This document shows positions 17,224 to 42,989 of a stretch of 46,790 nt of DNA, piece by piece. Position 1 is the first letter of the stretch. Each line of letters begins with the position of its first letter. Under the pieces are notes generated by a model, which had not been told where the DNA came from, made no database searches, and saw nothing but the letters and a program-made list of their open reading frames with translations. Both the position numbers and the translations under genes were made by a program. The DNA is taken from NCBI GenBank assembly GCA_028287925.1, contig JAQBOS010000086.1, forward strand, positions 1 through 46,790. The letters run 5' to 3'. The stretch is from Mucilaginibacter sp. (GTDB lineage: Bacteria; Bacteroidota; Bacteroidia; Sphingobacteriales; Sphingobacteriaceae).

Positions 17224-17967
17224 TTATCGCTTCCGTGAAGTTTTAAGTAGTTTGTTGGATAAGTAGCAAGTGAAATTTTCCCTGTAACTCTCACCAACAG
17301 TAAAGGATAAATTATTATTCATCCTAATCGTATTTCCCTCGATATAGTTGATGCAATCGGTCGAAATGATAAAGGCTCTATGAAACTGTTTAAATTCATT
17401 ACGAGATCCTAATAGTTCCAAAATATCTTTGATTGTTAAATAAGCGGTTAGGATTTTATTGCTGGCCAAATGTATTTTAACATAATTGTGTGAACTTTCA
17501 AAAGCAATAACTTCTTTATATCCGACTTTGACTATTCGCAAATCTTCCTCTTTATTTTTAACAAGGAAGTATTCATCATCTTGGGACAATTCTGAAATCC
17601 TTACTGGCTTTTCATTTGGAAATAATCGATTGATCGTCATGGAAAATTTTCCAAAAGTGAAGGGTTTTAAGAGATATGCATCACCTTCCACTTCAAAAGC
17701 TTCAAACGCATACTTTGAATGGGACGTAATGAATATTAATTTTTTGGTTTTGTGCCTGATAGCTTTCGCTAATTCTATTCCAGACAAAAATGGCATATCG
17801 ATATCCATAAAAATCAAGTCGATATTGTTTTCCAGGGTTACGCTTTCTAAAGCCTCAAGAGGGTTTTTATATATATCTACGACATTTAGTTTTGGGAGAA
17901 GTTCGATGTATTTTAGAATCGCATCAACAGAAAATTGTTCATCATCAATAATAATACAATTCAACAT
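17224..17967 (-). CDS. LytTR-family response regulator
   Basis: REC domain IIIDDE..FMDIDMP..YLLKP; LytTR domain FKQFHRAFII. Confidence 0.95.
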   Translation of the reverse strand: MLNCIIIDDEQFSVDAILKYIELLPKLNVVDIYKNPLEALESVTLENNIDLIFMDIDMPFLSGIELAKAIRHKTKKLIFITSHSKYAFEAFEVEGDAYLLKPFTFGKFSMTINRLFPNEKPVRISELSQDDEYFLVKNKEEDLRIVKVGYKEVIAFESSHNYVKIHLASNKILTAYLTIKDILELLGSRNEFKQFHRAFIISTDCINYIEGNTIRMNNNLSFTVGESYRENFTCYLSNKLLKTSRKR

Positions 17968-18449
17968 ATGTTCTTATTGTTATGCCGATCAGAAGGTTTA
18001 CCCATTTAGGCTGGGCAAACACTTCTCTTACGACAAAGTAAGTAATATTTTATATTAACCTGTAAATTTGTATAGTTAGTTTTATAATTGTTACGTAATT
18101 AACCTATTCTATATGAGGACTGTCTGGTAAATTTCTTCCTAAGCAACAATTTTGAAAGCCCCTAAAAACAACTAATTAACTAAATTAATCGTAATAAAGG
18201 TAATGCCCTCCTTTGTTACCCCAAAAGGAGTGTTTTCTACATAGAAAGGTTTGTTTTCTTAATTGATAAATAAATGCTGTAAAACAGCATTGTAAAATAG
18301 ATAGCTGCCCTTGCTTAATTGCCCGATATAATTGTCCCTAATTAAATATTGCCCTATCTGTGATCATTCGATTCGGATAAAAAAATATCATAATGAATAG
18401 TGAGCTACTATGATAAAATTACGGATTTTGTGCAATTAGTTTCTTTTAT

Positions 18450-19193
18450 ATGAATATAAATAAATGCATTATCATAGATGATGAGCCTTACGCTATTGAA
18501 GGACTTAAAAATTATATCGGCTCAATTCCAAATTTAAGCGTATTTAAATCGTACACTGATCCGGTGCAGGCACTAATCGAACTGGCAGCTTCTGACATGG
18601 TTGATTTAATCCTTTTAGATATAGACATGCCTAAAATAACAGGGATTGAGTTATCCAGGGAAATCAGGCAAAAAACCCGTAAACTGGTATTTACGACCTC
18701 CTACACCCAATATGGTTATCAGGCATTTGAAGTGGAGGCGGACGCTTACCTGCTAAAGCCATACACCTTGTCCAAGTTTGCTGCTACAATTTCAAAATTG
18801 TTTCCAAAAGAAGAAAAGTTTAGGCTGGAAGGTAACGTAACTGATGATTATTTTTTTGTCAAGAATAAGGATGACCATTTAAAAATCGTAAAAATCAGGT
18901 ATGACGAAGTGATCGCGGTGGAAAGCAAACAAAATTATGTCATGATCCATACGCCAACCAAAAAAGTTCTCACCTATATGTCGCTTACTGAAATTTCCAA
19001 AATTTTCAGACCCGTTCGGAAATTTGAGCAGTTTCAGCGCAGTTTTATTATTGGTAAAGATCACATCGATTCGATTGACGGCAACACAATCAAAATGGTC
19101 AATGGTCTTCAGATTACTGTTGGCGAATATTTCAGAAAGGATTTTTCGACATTTTTATCGGAAAAACTTATAAAGGCAAGGCGTAAAGAATGA
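18450..19193 (+). CDS. LytTR-family response regulator (divergent paralog)
   Basis: REC domain IIIDDE..LLDIDMP..YLLKP; FEQFQRSFII. Confidence 0.95.
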   Translation: MNINKCIIIDDEPYAIEGLKNYIGSIPNLSVFKSYTDPVQALIELAASDMVDLILLDIDMPKITGIELSREIRQKTRKLVFTTSYTQYGYQAFEVEADAYLLKPYTLSKFAATISKLFPKEEKFRLEGNVTDDYFFVKNKDDHLKIVKIRYDEVIAVESKQNYVMIHTPTKKVLTYMSLTEISKIFRPVRKFEQFQRSFIIGKDHIDSIDGNTIKMVNGLQITVGEYFRKDFSTFLSEKLIKARRKE

Positions 19194-19215
19194 CGCCTTT
19201 GCCTTTATTAAAACG

Positions 19216-19374
19216 TTAATTTGAACGACCTGCATTGAAAACACCAGTTTTCGTCATGGTTATCATGCTCGTTGTTGGGTCTGTCCCCTCTGTTTCAGTA
19301 ACGTTTTTTAACGAGTTTTGGGGTTTGTACACAAAAAGTGTAGTGTCGGGGATCTTAAAATGTTTCTGTTTCAT
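19216..19374 (-). CDS. 52-aa Cys-free Thr/Ser-rich putative RiPP precursor (candidate LanB substrate)
   Basis: Manual translation MKQKHFKIPDTTLFVYKPQNSLKNVTETEGTDPTTSMITMTKTGVFNAGRSN; fills the gap between LytTR and the kinase; below the ORF-track size cutoff. Confidence 0.75.
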   Translation of the reverse strand: MKQKHFKIPDTTLFVYKPQNSLKNVTETEGTDPTTSMITMTKTGVFNAGRSN

Positions 19375-19466
19375 AGCGTTTTTTTATGAAACTTATATTG
19401 AATTTTAACCCGATAAAAAATAGTTATACAGAACTATATTTTTTCTATTTAGAAAGGGCGACTATC

Positions 19467-20597
19467 ATGAAAAGAATATTTTCCAGTTGGTTCAAAAAAT
19501 ACAGGATTCATATATTAGTATGGATAATATTTATTTTATATGAATCAATTACAATAGGCTGGCTACTTGGCGTGTTCGGCAATCCAATAACTTATGCTGC
19601 ACATTATATTATTATTATTTCCCTCTTTTATTTTCATGCCAACTGGTCAATGCCCTGGGCACTGACTAACAATAAAAGGATACTGTGGAAGGTCCCAGCC
19701 ATCTTGGTGCTGGAAATAGTGGTATTTATTTTAATATCTTTTTTTACTGATAAATTATTGATCATTACCCATATTCTGTTTAACAAGGGCCCTCTGATAC
19801 TAAACCTTCAATATAGCTTAAAAACATTCTTTAGAGACCTTTATTTTATTGGATTTTCTACAGGCTATTACTTTCTACTTACTTATAATAAGGAAAAAAG
19901 GAAGACAAATGAACTTGAAAAACAGCGATTAAAAGACATTATTTACCAGCAGAAATCGGAGCAGGATCTAACCAAGGCACAAAATGCATATTTAAAAGCG
20001 CAGATAAACCCGCATTTTTTATTCAACACATTAGACTTTGTTTATCACAATATTTTGACCTTATCGCCAAATGCAGCGGACACAATTATCACATTATCTG
20101 AGATGATGCGTTATGCAATAGATTCTGATAAAATGGGTGATTTTATTCCGTTAGGAGATGAAATAGATCAGGTTGAAAATCTTGTGTATTTAAACCAGAT
20201 CCGGAAGAACCATGAGTTAGGTTTCATTCTGGAATACGAAGAAAATGTCCGGCAAATCTATCTTACTCCTTTAGTCCTGCTGACAATTGTAGAAAACATC
20301 TTCAAGCACGGCAACCTTACAGAAGACGGACATAATGCATTAGTCCATGTTTATTTGAAGAATGAAACATTTTTTATTGAAACGGACAATTTGATTAACC
20401 TTAGAACTAAAGGAGCAGGCAATAATAAAGGCATGAGTAATACAGAACAAAGATTAAAATATGCTTACGGAGATAATATTTTATTTAACTATTATTCTGA
20501 CGAATCAAGTCATTTTAAGGTTCAGTTGAGTATTCCGCTGAAACAGCTGAAATACCCCGGCGAGCCTTTAATATTTTTACCAGATACTGATATATAA
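19467..20597 (+). CDS. LytS/YehU-type membrane histidine kinase
   Basis: About four TM helices, AQINPHFLFNTL H-box, VENIFKHG; likely start MKRIFSSW at 19467 (ORF track 19386). Confidence 0.92.
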   Translation: MKRIFSSWFKKYRIHILVWIIFILYESITIGWLLGVFGNPITYAAHYIIIISLFYFHANWSMPWALTNNKRILWKVPAILVLEIVVFILISFFTDKLLIITHILFNKGPLILNLQYSLKTFFRDLYFIGFSTGYYFLLTYNKEKRKTNELEKQRLKDIIYQQKSEQDLTKAQNAYLKAQINPHFLFNTLDFVYHNILTLSPNAADTIITLSEMMRYAIDSDKMGDFIPLGDEIDQVENLVYLNQIRKNHELGFILEYEENVRQIYLTPLVLLTIVENIFKHGNLTEDGHNALVHVYLKNETFFIETDNLINLRTKGAGNNKGMSNTEQRLKYAYGDNILFNYYSDESSHFKVQLSIPLKQLKYPGEPLIFLPDTDI

Positions 20598-23367
20598 TCG
20601 CCTCGTGAATTCGCTGGTCGGAAATAAAAAGCCGGTTAATGTGCATATGCAGTAAATCTGCTGTCAGATTTATTTTGTCAGTATTGTTATCGCATTGATT
20701 CATGATTTCGACAAATTCAATTTCATAGCGATCATGCAACTTGTCTAAACCAGGTACAATTGTAATCACTAAAGATTCTTTATGCCTTTGAAACGATTGA
20801 TTTATTTTTTTGAAACTTTCCTGGTTCATACTTAATTCCTTTTTAAAACTATCTGCCATATTGGTGACAAACAAAATTTGAGCGTTAATCTCTTCAAAAC
20901 AACTTTCTATCAATCTTTGCATAGTTACCAGGGTAATAGCATAAAGTTGTACTGTTGAATATTTCTTCGCCAATAGGGATAAAATCGCTCTGCTATCAGT
21001 ATAGAAAAACCCTTCAACCAGGCTAATCCGGCTCGAACCGTACCGCTGGACTTCGCGTATATATGTCCTTATTTGTATGTCTGAAATTAATCCCGATAAA
21101 AAATCTTGTTCCAATAAAGAATTAAGCCGGTTGATGAAAAGATACCCCTGAGATATTTCTTTTAATTGCACGCGTAATCGGAGGTGTGGCTTAGGATCGT
21201 CATAGCGGATAAAAAACCATTGCTTAATATTTTGCCTGCCCTCTTTTAAAAACACAGCAACCTGGTTAAGTAAGACGGCGTTTCTTCGGGATTGATGGCA
21301 ATAAATTTCGAAATACAGCCAGTCGCTTCCTGGAAATGATATGCTTTTGACTGGATGATTTTGTTCCTTACCATTTGCAAAGTTTTGAAGACCCGAATAA
21401 ACTCTATTTTCATGGCCGTAGTTTAAAATATATTCGGCCACATATGGCTTTCCTTTATCATCTTTAATAGATACTTCCTTTGATAATAAAGCTTCAGAAA
21501 TATACATATACTTTTGTTGATTTTGACGGCAAAAGAGCAAAAACGCAATCATATCGGTTGCTATTTTGGGGTCAAAGCAAAGTGTCTGGTCTGAAAAGCC
21601 TGTTTTAAAAAGAGAATTAATACCACATTTCTGTAGCCAGTTTCCCAAAATCGTCAAAGCTTTTAGTGGCTCATCACCATCATTGATTTTCAAGATGTCC
21701 GGCGGGACTTGCCACATGGCTGGGGAAACAATTATATTTTTATATACTACCCTCGGATAACGATCCAGGTTGGGAAAAAATTGCTGAATCTTAAAACTCA
21801 GGTCGGATCTGATCCCCTGGTGCTGGAGATCACAAAGAAACCGGTAGACTGCAAGGTCTGAACGGGTATAATTATAGGCCGATGGAATTCGTGGAACGAG
21901 TCTTTTACCAAACTTCTTTGACCAAAGTATAACTTCAGAATTCCTGACGCCAACCAGAATATCTTCAAAATGAATTGGGGAGGGGTCGTTTGACCAGGTT
22001 AATATAGGCAGTTCGTATTTATAAAGCTGCTTCCGGCGGTTTACATTATCAACTTGTTTTTCCGCCTGATATGCAATGTCAAAAAAAAGTATTTCTGGGT
22101 TTGCTTTCTCTTCTAAAGACGAGATCTGCTGACCTAATTTCTCAAGTTCCGGGCTGGCGATAGTAAAACGACCTATTAGTGCGTTCGCTGTACAGCCCCC
22201 TAAGCTTACAATAACCGGTTTGTCGCCATAGAAATGTAGCATGACACTAAAACTGTTAGGTAGTGGCAATGAACTCTCGGTTTTAGTGTTTTCAAATTCC
22301 TCTAACCGTATGTCACCATTTTTCATTAAGGCATTCAATAAAAAAAGATGTAATTTGGTGTAGGATATCTGTAATTCCTGGCGATCCTTCTCATTTACTG
22401 AATCTAAAATATCTATCAGCTCCTGATCGCTCAAATGATTGCCAAGGTTGCCATAGCCAATCCCGATTTCCGGGTCCATTGCAATAGTGAGCGGAACTGC
22501 AGCAAGTTCAAACTTTTTAAGGAATGCGTTGCGAAAATCACTTAATTGACTATTTCCTGAAGTGGGCAAATTCAAATGTAAAAGTTTGACCAACTCAGAA
22601 ATATCTTTGACTTTCCTGCTATTAAGACCCCCAGATAATAATTTACGTTCTGAGATAACGTACACTTTGTTTGATGTCTCCCGTTCAATTTTTAACCGAT
22701 CAAAATAATCGTCACCAGTTATATTTGGAAGCAGTTCTGTTAACAGGAGTTGAAGACTTAATAATTGCTCAAGCAGAATGTTAAGGTCCTTTACATTCAG
22801 TTGGTAATTGGATTGCATGTATCCATAAACTTCCTGTTTATTTGTTTTTTCCTTGCACAGCCTTAAAATACCGGTAAGTTCTGGGAACTCCATTACTGAA
22901 GTCATTTCAAAACATTCATTTTTAAAACGGATAAAACGTATTTCATCGCCGACTGTGTAGACTGTGGAGTTTGTTTGAAACCATGATGAACATTTAACAA
23001 CTTTGCTGAAATCTTCAATGTATTTATCCTTTTCCCCCCAGTCTATAAATTGTTTGGCAAAAATATTTTGATTCAATATCAAGGGGGAAGAATCTTCTTT
23101 TGAAAACGGGATAGGTGTAAATGCAGCGAAGCCACCAAAAGGCGTTGCTCTATATTTTGCTCTATTAAAATATTTCCAAATGGAAAAGCCTATTTTTTTA
23201 TTGGCTGTTTCTATTGAAGGAAAATCAATATGTTCAATGGTCTGGTAAAAAGAAGGTGAAGCCTCACTGATAAGAGTTTTTAGTTCCTGCCATTTTTCTT
23301 CTATGGTATCATCTACGCTGAATACAGGCGTCCGGCAAATAACTATATCCAACAAATTCAACTTCAT
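20515..23367 (-). CDS. lanB: Class I lanthipeptide-type dehydratase (glutamylation plus elimination domains)
   Basis: CRTP, KYFNRAKYRATPFGGFA, YPRV; C-terminal WFFIRYDDPKPHLRLR, YIREVQRYG, HMHINRL; 950 aa. Confidence 0.93.
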   Translation of the reverse strand: MKLNLLDIVICRTPVFSVDDTIEEKWQELKTLISEASPSFYQTIEHIDFPSIETANKKIGFSIWKYFNRAKYRATPFGGFAAFTPIPFSKEDSSPLILNQNIFAKQFIDWGEKDKYIEDFSKVVKCSSWFQTNSTVYTVGDEIRFIRFKNECFEMTSVMEFPELTGILRLCKEKTNKQEVYGYMQSNYQLNVKDLNILLEQLLSLQLLLTELLPNITGDDYFDRLKIERETSNKVYVISERKLLSGGLNSRKVKDISELVKLLHLNLPTSGNSQLSDFRNAFLKKFELAAVPLTIAMDPEIGIGYGNLGNHLSDQELIDILDSVNEKDRQELQISYTKLHLFLLNALMKNGDIRLEEFENTKTESSLPLPNSFSVMLHFYGDKPVIVSLGGCTANALIGRFTIASPELEKLGQQISSLEEKANPEILFFDIAYQAEKQVDNVNRRKQLYKYELPILTWSNDPSPIHFEDILVGVRNSEVILWSKKFGKRLVPRIPSAYNYTRSDLAVYRFLCDLQHQGIRSDLSFKIQQFFPNLDRYPRVVYKNIIVSPAMWQVPPDILKINDGDEPLKALTILGNWLQKCGINSLFKTGFSDQTLCFDPKIATDMIAFLLFCRQNQQKYMYISEALLSKEVSIKDDKGKPYVAEYILNYGHENRVYSGLQNFANGKEQNHPVKSISFPGSDWLYFEIYCHQSRRNAVLLNQVAVFLKEGRQNIKQWFFIRYDDPKPHLRLRVQLKEISQGYLFINRLNSLLEQDFLSGLISDIQIRTYIREVQRYGSSRISLVEGFFYTDSRAILSLLAKKYSTVQLYAITLVTMQRLIESCFEEINAQILFVTNMADSFKKELSMNQESFKKINQSFQRHKESLVITIVPGLDKLHDRYEIEFVEIMNQCDNNTDKINLTADLLHMHINRLFISDQRIHEAIIYQYLVKILKARRGISAVSAEYSTEP

Positions 23368-26113: not shown

Positions 26114-26572
26114 ATGGAAAGTATGATTTTAAAAAAAGGTAGGGTTCAGCTTTCAGAGCTTGCAAAGGAAAGGCTAACTATATGCATTCGTTTTGTTTGT
26201 ATGTTTTTATTCCTCTATGCAGCATATGCCAAAATAATTGATCATGACCGTTTTTTAACGGGTTTATCAAATGTGCAGATCGTTAGTGCTATTGCGGTTT
26301 ACATTTCCTGGTTTGTTCCAATAGCCGAAATCATCATTTCCTTTTTATTACTGATTCCACAGACCGCTAAGTTAGGGCTTTATGGATTTATTGGTTTAAT
26401 GACCATATTCATTGGTTATATCATCAGTGTTCTGCTTTGGGAAAAATACCTTCCATGCCATTGTGGCGGAGCCATCGAAAAGTTAAGCTGGACACAGCAT
26501 ATATGGTTCAATCTCGCATTTATAATAATTGCCATAATTGCTCTCCGACTTTCTAAGTCAAACAAATCTTAA
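26114..26572 (+). CDS. MauE/DoxX-family redox-associated membrane protein
   Basis: LFLYAAYAKI, VPIAEI, LPCHCGGAIEKLSWTQHIWFN. Confidence 0.9.
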   Translation: MESMILKKGRVQLSELAKERLTICIRFVCMFLFLYAAYAKIIDHDRFLTGLSNVQIVSAIAVYISWFVPIAEIIISFLLLIPQTAKLGLYGFIGLMTIFIGYIISVLLWEKYLPCHCGGAIEKLSWTQHIWFNLAFIIIAIIALRLSKSNKS

Positions 26573-26585
26573 ATAATTACAAAAA

Positions 26586-26882
26586 ATGAAAAACGTAAAA
26601 CAAATAGCCTTTGGCCTGATTATAGGTTTAATGGCAATCGGGTTTAGTGCATTTACCAATGCGAAACCAAACAAGTCGAAATTCACAACATTTTATTACG
26701 GGCTGAACCATGCCGGTGATACCTATATTAGGTCTACAACTAATCCAGCATCAGGTTGTCACACTGCTTCATTACCTGATTGTGTGATTAGCTATCCTGC
26801 CGATAAGGGAGCAACGCTTGACCCCAATTCTTTACCTACAGGATCAACTGTAGTTAGCGGCCCAGGCTGGGTAAATCCATAA
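26586..26882 (+). CDS. Small secreted two-Cys protein (DUF6520-like)
   Basis: Signal peptide ending GFSAFT; C-x7-C; directly after MauE/DoxX. Confidence 0.75.
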   Translation: MKNVKQIAFGLIIGLMAIGFSAFTNAKPNKSKFTTFYYGLNHAGDTYIRSTTNPASGCHTASLPDCVISYPADKGATLDPNSLPTGSTVVSGPGWVNP

Positions 26883-41396: not shown

Positions 41397-42989
41397 ATGC
41401 TTTCATTTACCACCTACCAAAACCCAGAAGCAGCAGTCAACAAATTATTAACGACCTTATCAATTAAAATTGATCCTGAAATCATTAGTGGCGAATTAGA
41501 AAAACACCCGGATTACCCAAGCCTTTTGGCTTTAAGCGAAGTATTAACGGCGCTAAATATCGAAAATGCGGCTTACCACGTTGATACGAACAGTTTGACA
41601 AACGTACCATGCCCATTTATAGCGCATACTAATATTAATGGCGGTGATTTTTTAGTGGTAAATAAAATTAATGGCGATAAAGTTACAGTGTCCAGCGAAA
41701 AATGGAACAATCACAAGATAAACCTTGATGAATTTAAAAAATTATTCAAAGGCATTGTTTTAACAGCCGAACCGTCTGCAATTTTTAAAACAACTCCTTA
41801 CACAACTTTATTATCCACCATTAAAATTCCGGCCATATCAGCGGCACTTTTATTGATCTTAGTACTGGCACTTTTTAATACCGGGTATTTTTCAAAAATA
41901 GACTGGCAAACAGTACTGCTAACAATTTTTAAAACTGTCGGGTTAATAACTTCGATATTATTGTTGATCCAATCCATTGATAGTAATAACCCTTTGGTTC
42001 AAAAGCTTTGTCAAAGCGGTACTAAAACGAATTGCAACGTTATATTAACCTCAAAAGCGGCAAAAGTATTTGATGGGCTTACCTGGAGCGAGGTTGGTTT
42101 CTTTTATTTTTCAGGAACCTGGTTGATATTATTATTAGGAGGCGGGTCAGGTACTATTTGGTGGATATTGGCCGGACTAAACATTTTAAGCTTACCCTAC
42201 ACCTTTTATTCCATTTATTACCAAGCCCGTATAGCAAAGCAATGGTGTGTGTTATGTTGCACCGTACAGGCGGTGTTATGGTTAGAGTTCGTTCCATTAA
42301 TTACTATTGCCTATAAACCGTCTTTCAGACTTAAAGATGTCTGGGTAAGCACCGCAGGTACTATTATTTCCAGCATGTTGATCCCCGTCATTTTATGGCT
42401 AATTGCAAAACCTTTGATTTTAAAAGTAAAGCAATTACGGCCTTTAAAACAGCAATTGCGAAAGTTTAAATACAACACCAACCTGTTTAACAATGCCTTA
42501 ATGACACAACCTAAGTATTCTCAACCCGATGATACCTGGAGCATAGTTTTAGGCAATTTGAAAGCTGATCATATTATAACTATGGTAAGTAATCCCTATT
42601 GTGCCCCCTGTGCCAAAGCACATAATCAATTAATTGAATTGCTGGAACAGCGTGATGATTTACAGGCCCGAATAGTGTTTACGGCCAGTAATACTGATGA
42701 AGATATAAAAACCCCGGTAAGCCGCCACCTGATGGCACTGAACCAAAAGCCGGATAAAACGATTGTAAAAGAAGCCCTTCACGATTGGTATCAACAAAAA
42801 CAAAAAACTTACGAAGCCTGGGCAAAGGTTTACCCGGTACAAATAGTTGAAGCAGATTTTCACAAGCTTGACAAACAAAGAATATGGTGTGAAATGGCAG
42901 AGGTTACTGCTACTCCTACAATGTTGCTCAACGGTTACCGCCTGTCCGATTTGTATCAATTACCCGATCTAAAATACATGCTTGAATAA
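41397..42989 (+). CDS. C39-peptidase-like / VKOR / thioredoxin fusion protein
   Basis: HPDYPSLLALSEVL and PFIAH (C39-like); LCQSGTKTNC..S and WCVLC (VKOR); NPYCAPC and TPTMLLNG (DsbA-like). Confidence 0.9.
   Translation: MLSFTTYQNPEAAVNKLLTTLSIKIDPEIISGELEKHPDYPSLLALSEVLTALNIENAAYHVDTNSLTNVPCPFIAHTNINGGDFLVVNKINGDKVTVSSEKWNNHKINLDEFKKLFKGIVLTAEPSAIFKTTPYTTLLSTIKIPAISAALLLILVLALFNTGYFSKIDWQTVLLTIFKTVGLITSILLLIQSIDSNNPLVQKLCQSGTKTNCNVILTSKAAKVFDGLTWSEVGFFYFSGTWLILLLGGGSGTIWWILAGLNILSLPYTFYSIYYQARIAKQWCVLCCTVQAVLWLEFVPLITIAYKPSFRLKDVWVSTAGTIISSMLIPVILWLIAKPLILKVKQLRPLKQQLRKFKYNTNLFNNALMTQPKYSQPDDTWSIVLGNLKADHIITMVSNPYCAPCAKAHNQLIELLEQRDDLQARIVFTASNTDEDIKTPVSRHLMALNQKPDKTIVKEALHDWYQQKQKTYEAWAKVYPVQIVEADFHKLDKQRIWCEMAEVTATPTMLLNGYRLSDLYQLPDLKYMLE

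Follow-up and report, generated by a model that had tools for sequence, protein, structure and literature searches.

The 52-aa open reading frame studied here is a real gene, and belongs to a conserved family with many members in Mucilaginibacter, Pedobacter and their relatives. We consider it probable that it encodes an autoinduced, LanB-dehydrated peptide pheromone with strain-specific types, whose modification, export, binding and output we infer. The window, that is, the whole stretch of 46,790 nucleotides that was analysed, is a Bacteroidota conjugative element with tra genes, a relaxase and a primase on its left side. Its cargo region has a lower GC content and holds the peptide cassette together with a SusC/SusD/TlpA/MauE block. 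Four genes make up the cassette (Table 1), encoding a full-length LanB dehydratase, a four-helix LytS-type histidine kinase, the Thr-rich precursor and a LytTR regulator. The peptide gene lies between LytTR regulator 1 and the kinase gene, and the latter is convergent with the LanB gene. Scanning the genome collection with LanB gave a single result, a 99% identical locus in one Mucilaginibacter MAG. Elsewhere in the window, at 26114-26882 on the plus strand, a MauE-like gene is followed by a 98-aa secreted-looking protein, opposite SusC/SusD/TlpA; this block is repeated on G000:C544 and is often found close to peptide cassettes.

Table 1. Features of the peptide locus, in window coordinates.
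Feature	Position	Strand	Basis
52-aa Cys-free, Thr-rich precursor peptide gene	19216..19374	-	translation, family profile, dN/dS
Leader patch TLFVYK, residues 12-17, predicted LanB-binding strand	19324..19341	-	conservation; putative role by comparison with NisB/FNLD
TDPTT, residues 31-35, predicted core start	19270..19284	-	in 41 rows, P33 and T34 are conserved to at least 90%
Predicted LytTR operator, distal 9-bp repeat	19445..19453	-	repeat model
Predicted LytTR operator, proximal 9-bp repeat (12-bp spacer)	19424..19432	-	repeat model
Conserved TAAGTTTC box, 28 nt after the operator, like the Bacteroidota -7 promoter element	19388..19395	-	
LytS-type histidine kinase (PF06580), N-terminal four-helix membrane sensor, no Pfam family for the sensor	19467..20597	+	
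LytTR response regulator 1, predicted kinase cognate	18450..19193	+	
LanB, 950 aa, full-length (PF04738 + PF14028)	20515..23367	-	
Second LytTR regulator, predicted circuit target	17224..17967	-	
Second operator and -7-like box, upstream of the second LytTR gene	18180..18245	-	16.5 bits
Terminator-like hairpin between the convergent LytTR and peptide genes	19178..19199	+	weak

The peptide quoted in the earlier note is the exact translation of the minus strand of the window at 19216-19374, and its description proved accurate. The N-terminus is basic (five K/R against one D/E in the first 25 residues), the last 27 residues contain eight Thr and two Ser, Cys is absent, and the gene runs antisense to both neighbours, with a 92-bp gap to the kinase gene, the likely ATG of which is at 19467. 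The same note had proposed to look for conservation and for synonymous-biased substitutions in related loci, and both were found. The ORF and both of its motifs are kept across the family, which counts 211 homologous genes in 121 loci, and dN/dS against 11 relatives was 0.16-0.29 in nine, 0.45 in one and not computable in another. A six-frame scan of the genome yielded 11,823 ATG ORFs of 38-68 aa, only two of which are Cys-free with at least eight Thr in the last 27 residues, a criterion chosen after the peptide had been seen. One is the window peptide; the other, a paralog on C514, likewise lies opposite a kinase gene. The paralog, a second Cys-free TDPT peptide (G000:C514:396-548, plus strand), has an operator of 16.0 bits, and a second LanB that runs off the end of G000:C598 may belong with it. 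A profile of 27 peptides gave 217 matches among the 7,512 small ORFs of 174 loci, and 211 of these are arranged head-to-head with a kinase gene. Another profile, of 41 rows, matches 196 database clusters at 50% identity, nearly all of them 36-68 aa long among the 150 listed; named entries are each a 'hypothetical protein' of Pedobacter or Mucilaginibacter, except for one 407-aa cluster member. No family in Pfam or NCBIfam matches the peptide, and an Atlas comparison returned only unnamed clusters, below 0.9.

Could the ORF nonetheless merely reflect promoter DNA, or a frame on the opposite strand? In 6/8 close sequences one antisense frame has no stops, and it shares third codon positions, so that a low dN/dS alone does not fix the strand. 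The evidence from the family does: each of the 211 genes has a start and a stop of its own, as does every tandem copy, the promoter motif is oriented toward the peptide strand, and the 196 database clusters are of matching length. The non-gene reading is as such largely refuted, and we regard it as extremely improbable.

Family members share two conserved blocks. The first is a basic N-terminus that closes with T-[LV]-F-[VI]-[YF]-K, the second a [TS]-x-P-T motif; the linker between them varies in length, and the tail beyond them is variable, hydrophobic and rich in Thr/Ser. The bipartite, precursor-like build proposed in the earlier note is thereby borne out, T-L-F-V-Y-K and T-D-P-T being precisely these two blocks. 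DPT itself occurs in 78 of the 192 unique peptides, and the looser [TS]xP[TSIVG] in 157. The last 25 residues contain at least four Ser/Thr (7.8 on average), and 192 of the 211 genes lack Cys, with any Cys at all in the other 19. Tandem precursor arrays of 2-8 copies are present in 34 loci, mostly with one core type per locus. A signal peptide was not found in the precursor, and a double-Gly is not conserved in the family. The TLFVYK patch would act as the LanB-binding leader strand, a role assigned on the basis of the NisB/FNLD strand in the available text of PMC7296275, and the core is predicted to start at TDPTT, with cleavage near there. Several cassette peptides (L116-L120, L179 and L062) have a C-terminal Cys, for example in CxC motifs, and lie next to TlpA-like genes; no LanC was found in the G370, G382-linked or G528 loci read, and these may be intermediates.

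The neighbouring LanB was likewise recognized correctly: it is full-length, its catalytic residues are intact, it aligns with NisB, and along its whole length its predicted model resembles MadB, NisB and MibB. Equivalents of NisB R14, Y80, R83, R87, R464, R786 and H961 are present in all 119 cassette LanBs, those of T89 and R826 in 118/119, and that of D121 in 105/119. Apart from R786 and R826, these NisB residues are those named in the available text of PMC4341554 and PMC7296275. At the position of NisB D299, 99/119 cassette LanBs have E or Q, compared to D in 14/18 LanC-linked enzymes; in the available text of PMC4341554, the D299A mutant differs little from wild type in vivo, although an earlier study had found it inactive. 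Window-type LanBs also lack ~65-70 aa after the leader-binding domain, a segment that is present in LanC-linked LanBs. The elimination domain is present (PF14028 at LanB residues 683-931) with R732, R775 and H907 conserved, which sets the enzyme apart from PEARL or small LanB ligases, and a reading as pyridine synthase was rejected with a model score of 13.6 bits against a cut-off of 325. To judge from its residues, the cassette LanB looks active. In a midpoint-rooted tree of 128 of the 161 sequences, left after thinning near-identical g25 LanBs, the cassette LanBs form one clade apart from the LanC-linked LanBs (FastTree support 1.0). LanB homologs are found in 123/229 own-genus genomes, a tally that includes the unpublished G442, used nowhere else, and in 84/121 g25 genomes. 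Nearly all LanB loci that were opened carry the cassette, and the system is therefore common. Some cassette-clade LanBs (L110-L113, L184, L094, L173) occur in other contexts with no peptide in the stretch read, which for loci L085-L184 includes only ~600 bp upstream of LanB; several of them are preceded by a short kinase-like ORF.

A LanC cyclase is absent among the 40 window proteins, and elsewhere in the 86% complete genome only a weak fragment was found. LanB-positive relatives gave no LanC match in 35/51 and 48/80, the second search covering 80 of the 92 intended genomes. Only in G213 is LanC directly adjacent to a cassette-clade LanB, and there the peptide has two Cys and the kinase is absent; in G210, G348 and G431 it lies 6-15 kb from the cassette LanB. 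Since the family is so poor in Cys, and LanC, exporter and protease are all missing, the predicted cassette product is not a lanthipeptide. With neither Cys nor LanC, a dehydrated product would stay without thioether rings.

The constant partner of the peptide is the kinase. Among loci outside the training set, 170/175 profile matches are divergent from a kinase gene, compared to 597/5,571 small ORFs, and 18 of 19 dispersed peptide copies are located in three-gene kinase-peptide-LytTR satellites without a nearby LanB. Because the peptide is linked more tightly to the kinase than to LanB, a signalling role is our main reading, in place of an ordinary biosynthetic one; this tie was missed in the earlier note, whose precursor-like gene was otherwise upheld. 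Matches to the sensor family have a divergent peptide in 52/63 (a tally over several locus readings), and the 11 without a peptide of their own include all three in LanB-negative genomes. Sensor-family kinase and LytTR pairs without a peptide (L276-L279, L281, L282, L287-L289) are possible listen-only modules. In a family sample of 201 genomes, LanB was found in 52 and the peptide profile in 23, all among those 52; as the profile was partly built from these genomes, the informative figure is its absence from all 149 LanB-negative genomes. The sensor profile matches 38/201 genomes, 35 of which are LanB-positive. In G190, which has a broken LanB and a broken kinase, the peptide was not found. 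The satellites, and the occurrence of the peptide in LanB-positive genomes only, fit one LanB serving several channels in trans.

These data also bear on whether the pheromone is modified at all. Kinase signalling could proceed with an unmodified peptide, LanB being a retained neighbour with another substrate, as would suit the 18 satellites without adjacent LanB, the changed D299 position and the segment missing after the leader-binding domain. Moreover, leader and LanB leader-binding domain show no co-variation beyond shared ancestry (partial r 0.09 and 0.06). However, the complete lack of peptide matches in LanB-negative genomes, the near-invariant catalytic residues, the Ser/Thr content of the last 25 residues and the peptide not found in G190 all argue for modification, which makes an unmodified pheromone very improbable.

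The sensor is predicted to fold as a four-helix membrane domain (pLDDT 93.6), with W19, E26, Y47, F54, Y55 and R123 as invariant residues. A fold search with this model returned unrelated helical bundles (best Z 8.3) and nothing trustworthy, and a complex prediction of the kinase sensor with peptide residues 21-52 scored 0.01. A separate lineage with LanB, kinase and LytTR (L075, L076, L077, L080), for which LanC is absent from the stretch read, has Cys-free, Thr-rich peptides with another leader type upstream of LanB; its LanBs fall among the LanC-linked LanBs in the tree.

If the core is what the sensor perceives, both would be expected to vary together. Across 55 g25 loci, variability was 0.54 in the sensor, versus 0.19 in the cytoplasmic part of the kinase and 0.05-0.10 in the regulator. 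Core and sensor distances gave a partial r of 0.60 in the 55 g25 loci and of 0.60 in 25 own-genus loci, compared to 0.10 and -0.10, respectively, for leader and sensor; permutation p-values across such related genomes overstate significance. The near-duplicates L089 and L091, and loci with short or missing genes, had been dropped from this set. After controlling for the intervening leader and promoter DNA, the core-sensor partial r was still 0.55 and 0.59. In the same analysis, the LanB elimination domain gave a smaller value of 0.21, in g25 only.

In 24 close species, hand-sorted into four core types (12, 7, 3 and 2), sensor pN was 0.12 within and 0.33 between types, and core type does not separate the cytoplasmic part of the kinase, LytTR or LanB. 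The type-specific region is a single block of ~650 bp that begins sharply at the sensor's end and extends from the sensor through the promoter to the core. The agr specificity groups consist of a hypervariable block of sensor plus peptide as well, and close species swap sensor, promoter and peptide as one block in a like manner. Peptide and sensor alleles are thus found as matched pairs, but since sensor, promoter and core are contiguous, linkage or block exchange alone can give the pattern seen in the close set.

In all three groups, the upstream regions have a peak of repeats spaced 21 bp apart, which is broad in g25. An operator model was built of two 9-bp boxes separated by 12 bp and followed, after a further 28 bp, by TAnnTTT. 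With the test group excluded from training, it outscored every one of the 20 own shuffles in 14/29, 47/57 and 28/33 held-out loci. Operators above 12 bits are found before the second LytTR gene in 20/27 loci, none of which were used in training, and before 14/19 satellite peptides, compared to 2/115 for the first LytTR gene, 2/118 for the kinase, 10/119 for LanB and 0/12 for SusC. Similar sites flank unrelated LytS/LytTR loci in the window's own genome, and being common to other LytTR loci, the operator marks LytTR control generally, rather than cell-cell signalling. A sigma-70 promoter scan remained at chance level; the TAAGTTTC box resembles the Bacteroidota -7 promoter consensus. The predicted promoter points to autoinduction of the peptide gene. 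Terminator-like hairpins were in weak excess, with two found against 0.9 expected in shuffles.

The same operator accompanies a few other candidates. At L217, L218, L221 and L226, a near-identical 65-nt hairpin ending in a T run is located ~110-175 nt after the operator. In 4/5 g25 genomes it comes after operator and -7-like box, each time at another chromosomal site, four in all, which makes it a candidate small RNA target; it has no Rfam match and is absent from the 201-genome sample searched. A 124-aa protein without a Pfam family (L223:1770-2141, plus strand, and also L224 and L227) has a strong operator and adjoins a g25 LytTR gene, a candidate target positioned like the window's second LytTR gene. 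Lastly, the gene for a 67-aa small protein with the same operator (G000:C89:6945-7148, plus strand) is divergent from another LytS/LytTR pair and lies ahead of an ABC transporter operon.

How might such a circuit operate? It would start from the peptide gene, on which purifying selection acts and which is arranged head-to-head with the kinase gene. LanB would bind the TLFVYK leader strand and convert Thr/Ser of the core to dehydrobutyrine/dehydroalanine, after which a protease and an export route encoded elsewhere, the weakest step, would free the core near TDPT to the periplasm or the medium. The mature core may then bind the four-helix sensor, as the co-variation suggests, and phosphorylated LytTR would activate the peptide gene and the second LytTR gene, a positive feedback to which the operator points. 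Within one genome, a single LanB would serve several satellite kinase-peptide-LytTR channels.

Among the neighbours of 29 cassettes (~8 kb on each side, with 65 proteins scanned in Pfam), no exporter or protease is conserved; SusC/SusD genes are found near 10-11 of the 29. The C39-VKOR-thioredoxin gene at 41397-42989 (plus strand) was set aside as the protease, as the family has no conserved double-Gly and the gene is an irregular neighbour. Similar C39 peptidase-VKOR-thioredoxin genes adjoin one of the satellites (L263) and one module that has no peptide (L281). Because exporter and protease are missing, a cell-internal feedback keeps some weight, in which the peptide, dehydrated or not, stays in the cell and, once inserted in the inner membrane, adjusts the activity of its own kinase. 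Small membrane proteins do tune kinases, as in MgrB/PhoQ, and the basic N-terminus and hydrophobic core would suit such a role, with which sensor co-variation and operator are equally compatible. Conversely, sensor-plus-peptide allele swaps among close species at one chromosomal site, together with the amplification to 2-8 copies, are easier to understand under selection for between-strain signalling, and we consider an internal role unlikely. Copy amplification would also raise the yield of an antimicrobial. Nisin induces its own synthesis, and the LanB-linked dehydro-peptide could similarly be a bacteriocin in the main that also acts as its own inducer; LanC-containing clusters with a kinase/LytTR pair do exist in the family (L065, L291, L293). 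Yet the neighbours of those 29 cassettes include no recurrent gene for a transporter or for an immunity-like protein, the satellites consist of kinase, peptide and regulator only, and the Cys needed for rings is absent from most of the family, so that a self-inducing antimicrobial seems improbable.

The pheromone cassette as we propose it combines elements of several known systems. TbtB/TbtD (thiopeptide), GodF (goadsporin) and the PEARL ligases belong to the same fold family and also operate without a lanthionine cyclase. These are split or without an elimination domain and work with other tailoring enzymes, whereas the one fused enzyme of the cassette is its only modifying gene. With comCDE, agrBDCA and blp of Firmicutes, the cassette has in common a small precursor beside a membrane-embedded sensor kinase and a LytTR regulator, and the hypervariable sensor-plus-peptide block. 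It differs in its Gram-negative host, a LytS-type kinase (PF06580) with four helices, predicted LanB dehydration instead of a thiolactone or an unmodified peptide, the lack of an AgrB or ComAB equivalent, and a precursor divergent from the kinase gene. A further likeness is the 9-12-9 direct repeat before the precursor promoter, which is the geometry of ComE sites in the available text of PMC4005675. Class I lanthipeptides (NisA/NisB/NisC; MadB, MibB; pinensin; Pedobacter ped) share the full-length tRNA-dependent dehydratase, in which the residues for glutamylation and elimination are conserved, a hydrophobic leader patch, a Ser/Thr-rich core and a linked two-component system. In contrast to these, the cassette has no LanC, transporter or protease, its cores are nearly all Cys-free, and its LanBs stand apart in their own clade. 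Its leader is neither of the FxLD nor of the LxLxKx5L/GG type reported for Bacteroidota in the available text of PMC7268733.

Related clusters may indicate where the cassette came from. In L065, a divergent precursor with one Cys accompanies LanB, LanC, a peptidase-transporter and a kinase/LytTR pair. In L293, LanC occurs with a DPT peptide that contains Cys, and L291, which comes from a different family, combines kinase, LytTR, LanB and LanC with a peptide free of Cys. The existence of these clusters suggests that the cassette arose by reduction from self-regulated lanthipeptide clusters.

Bacteroidota dominate plant and soil microbiomes. To our knowledge, no dedicated peptide quorum-sensing circuit has been established for them, which the literature searched does not contradict; this literature, thin in its coverage of subscription chemistry journals, contains no description of the cassette. 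As far as the available text of each goes, a 2010 survey noted a Pedobacter 'LanB only' gene (PMC3091789), and a 2020 precursor survey centred on LanC-domain proteins and set Cys-free precursors aside (PMC7268733). For Gram-negative soil bacteria, the cassette would represent a so far undescribed system of strain-specific peptide signalling, in which dehydration and sensing by the kinase are both likely. More tentatively, and as a picture that we find plausible rather than probable, there could be a peptide language throughout the Sphingobacteriaceae, with ring-less dehydrobutyrine pheromones that are kin-specific, made by a single lantibiotic-derived LanB and perceived by new four-helix receptors in parallel channels, and with mobile elements carrying sets of their own. 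The proposed circuit itself would account for the orphan 'LanB only' genes that have been noted since 2010 and were skipped by LanC-centred mining. The cassettes would furthermore supply matched peptide-receptor pairs that are open to direct testing, and a stand-alone dehydratase for producing ring-less dehydro-peptides.
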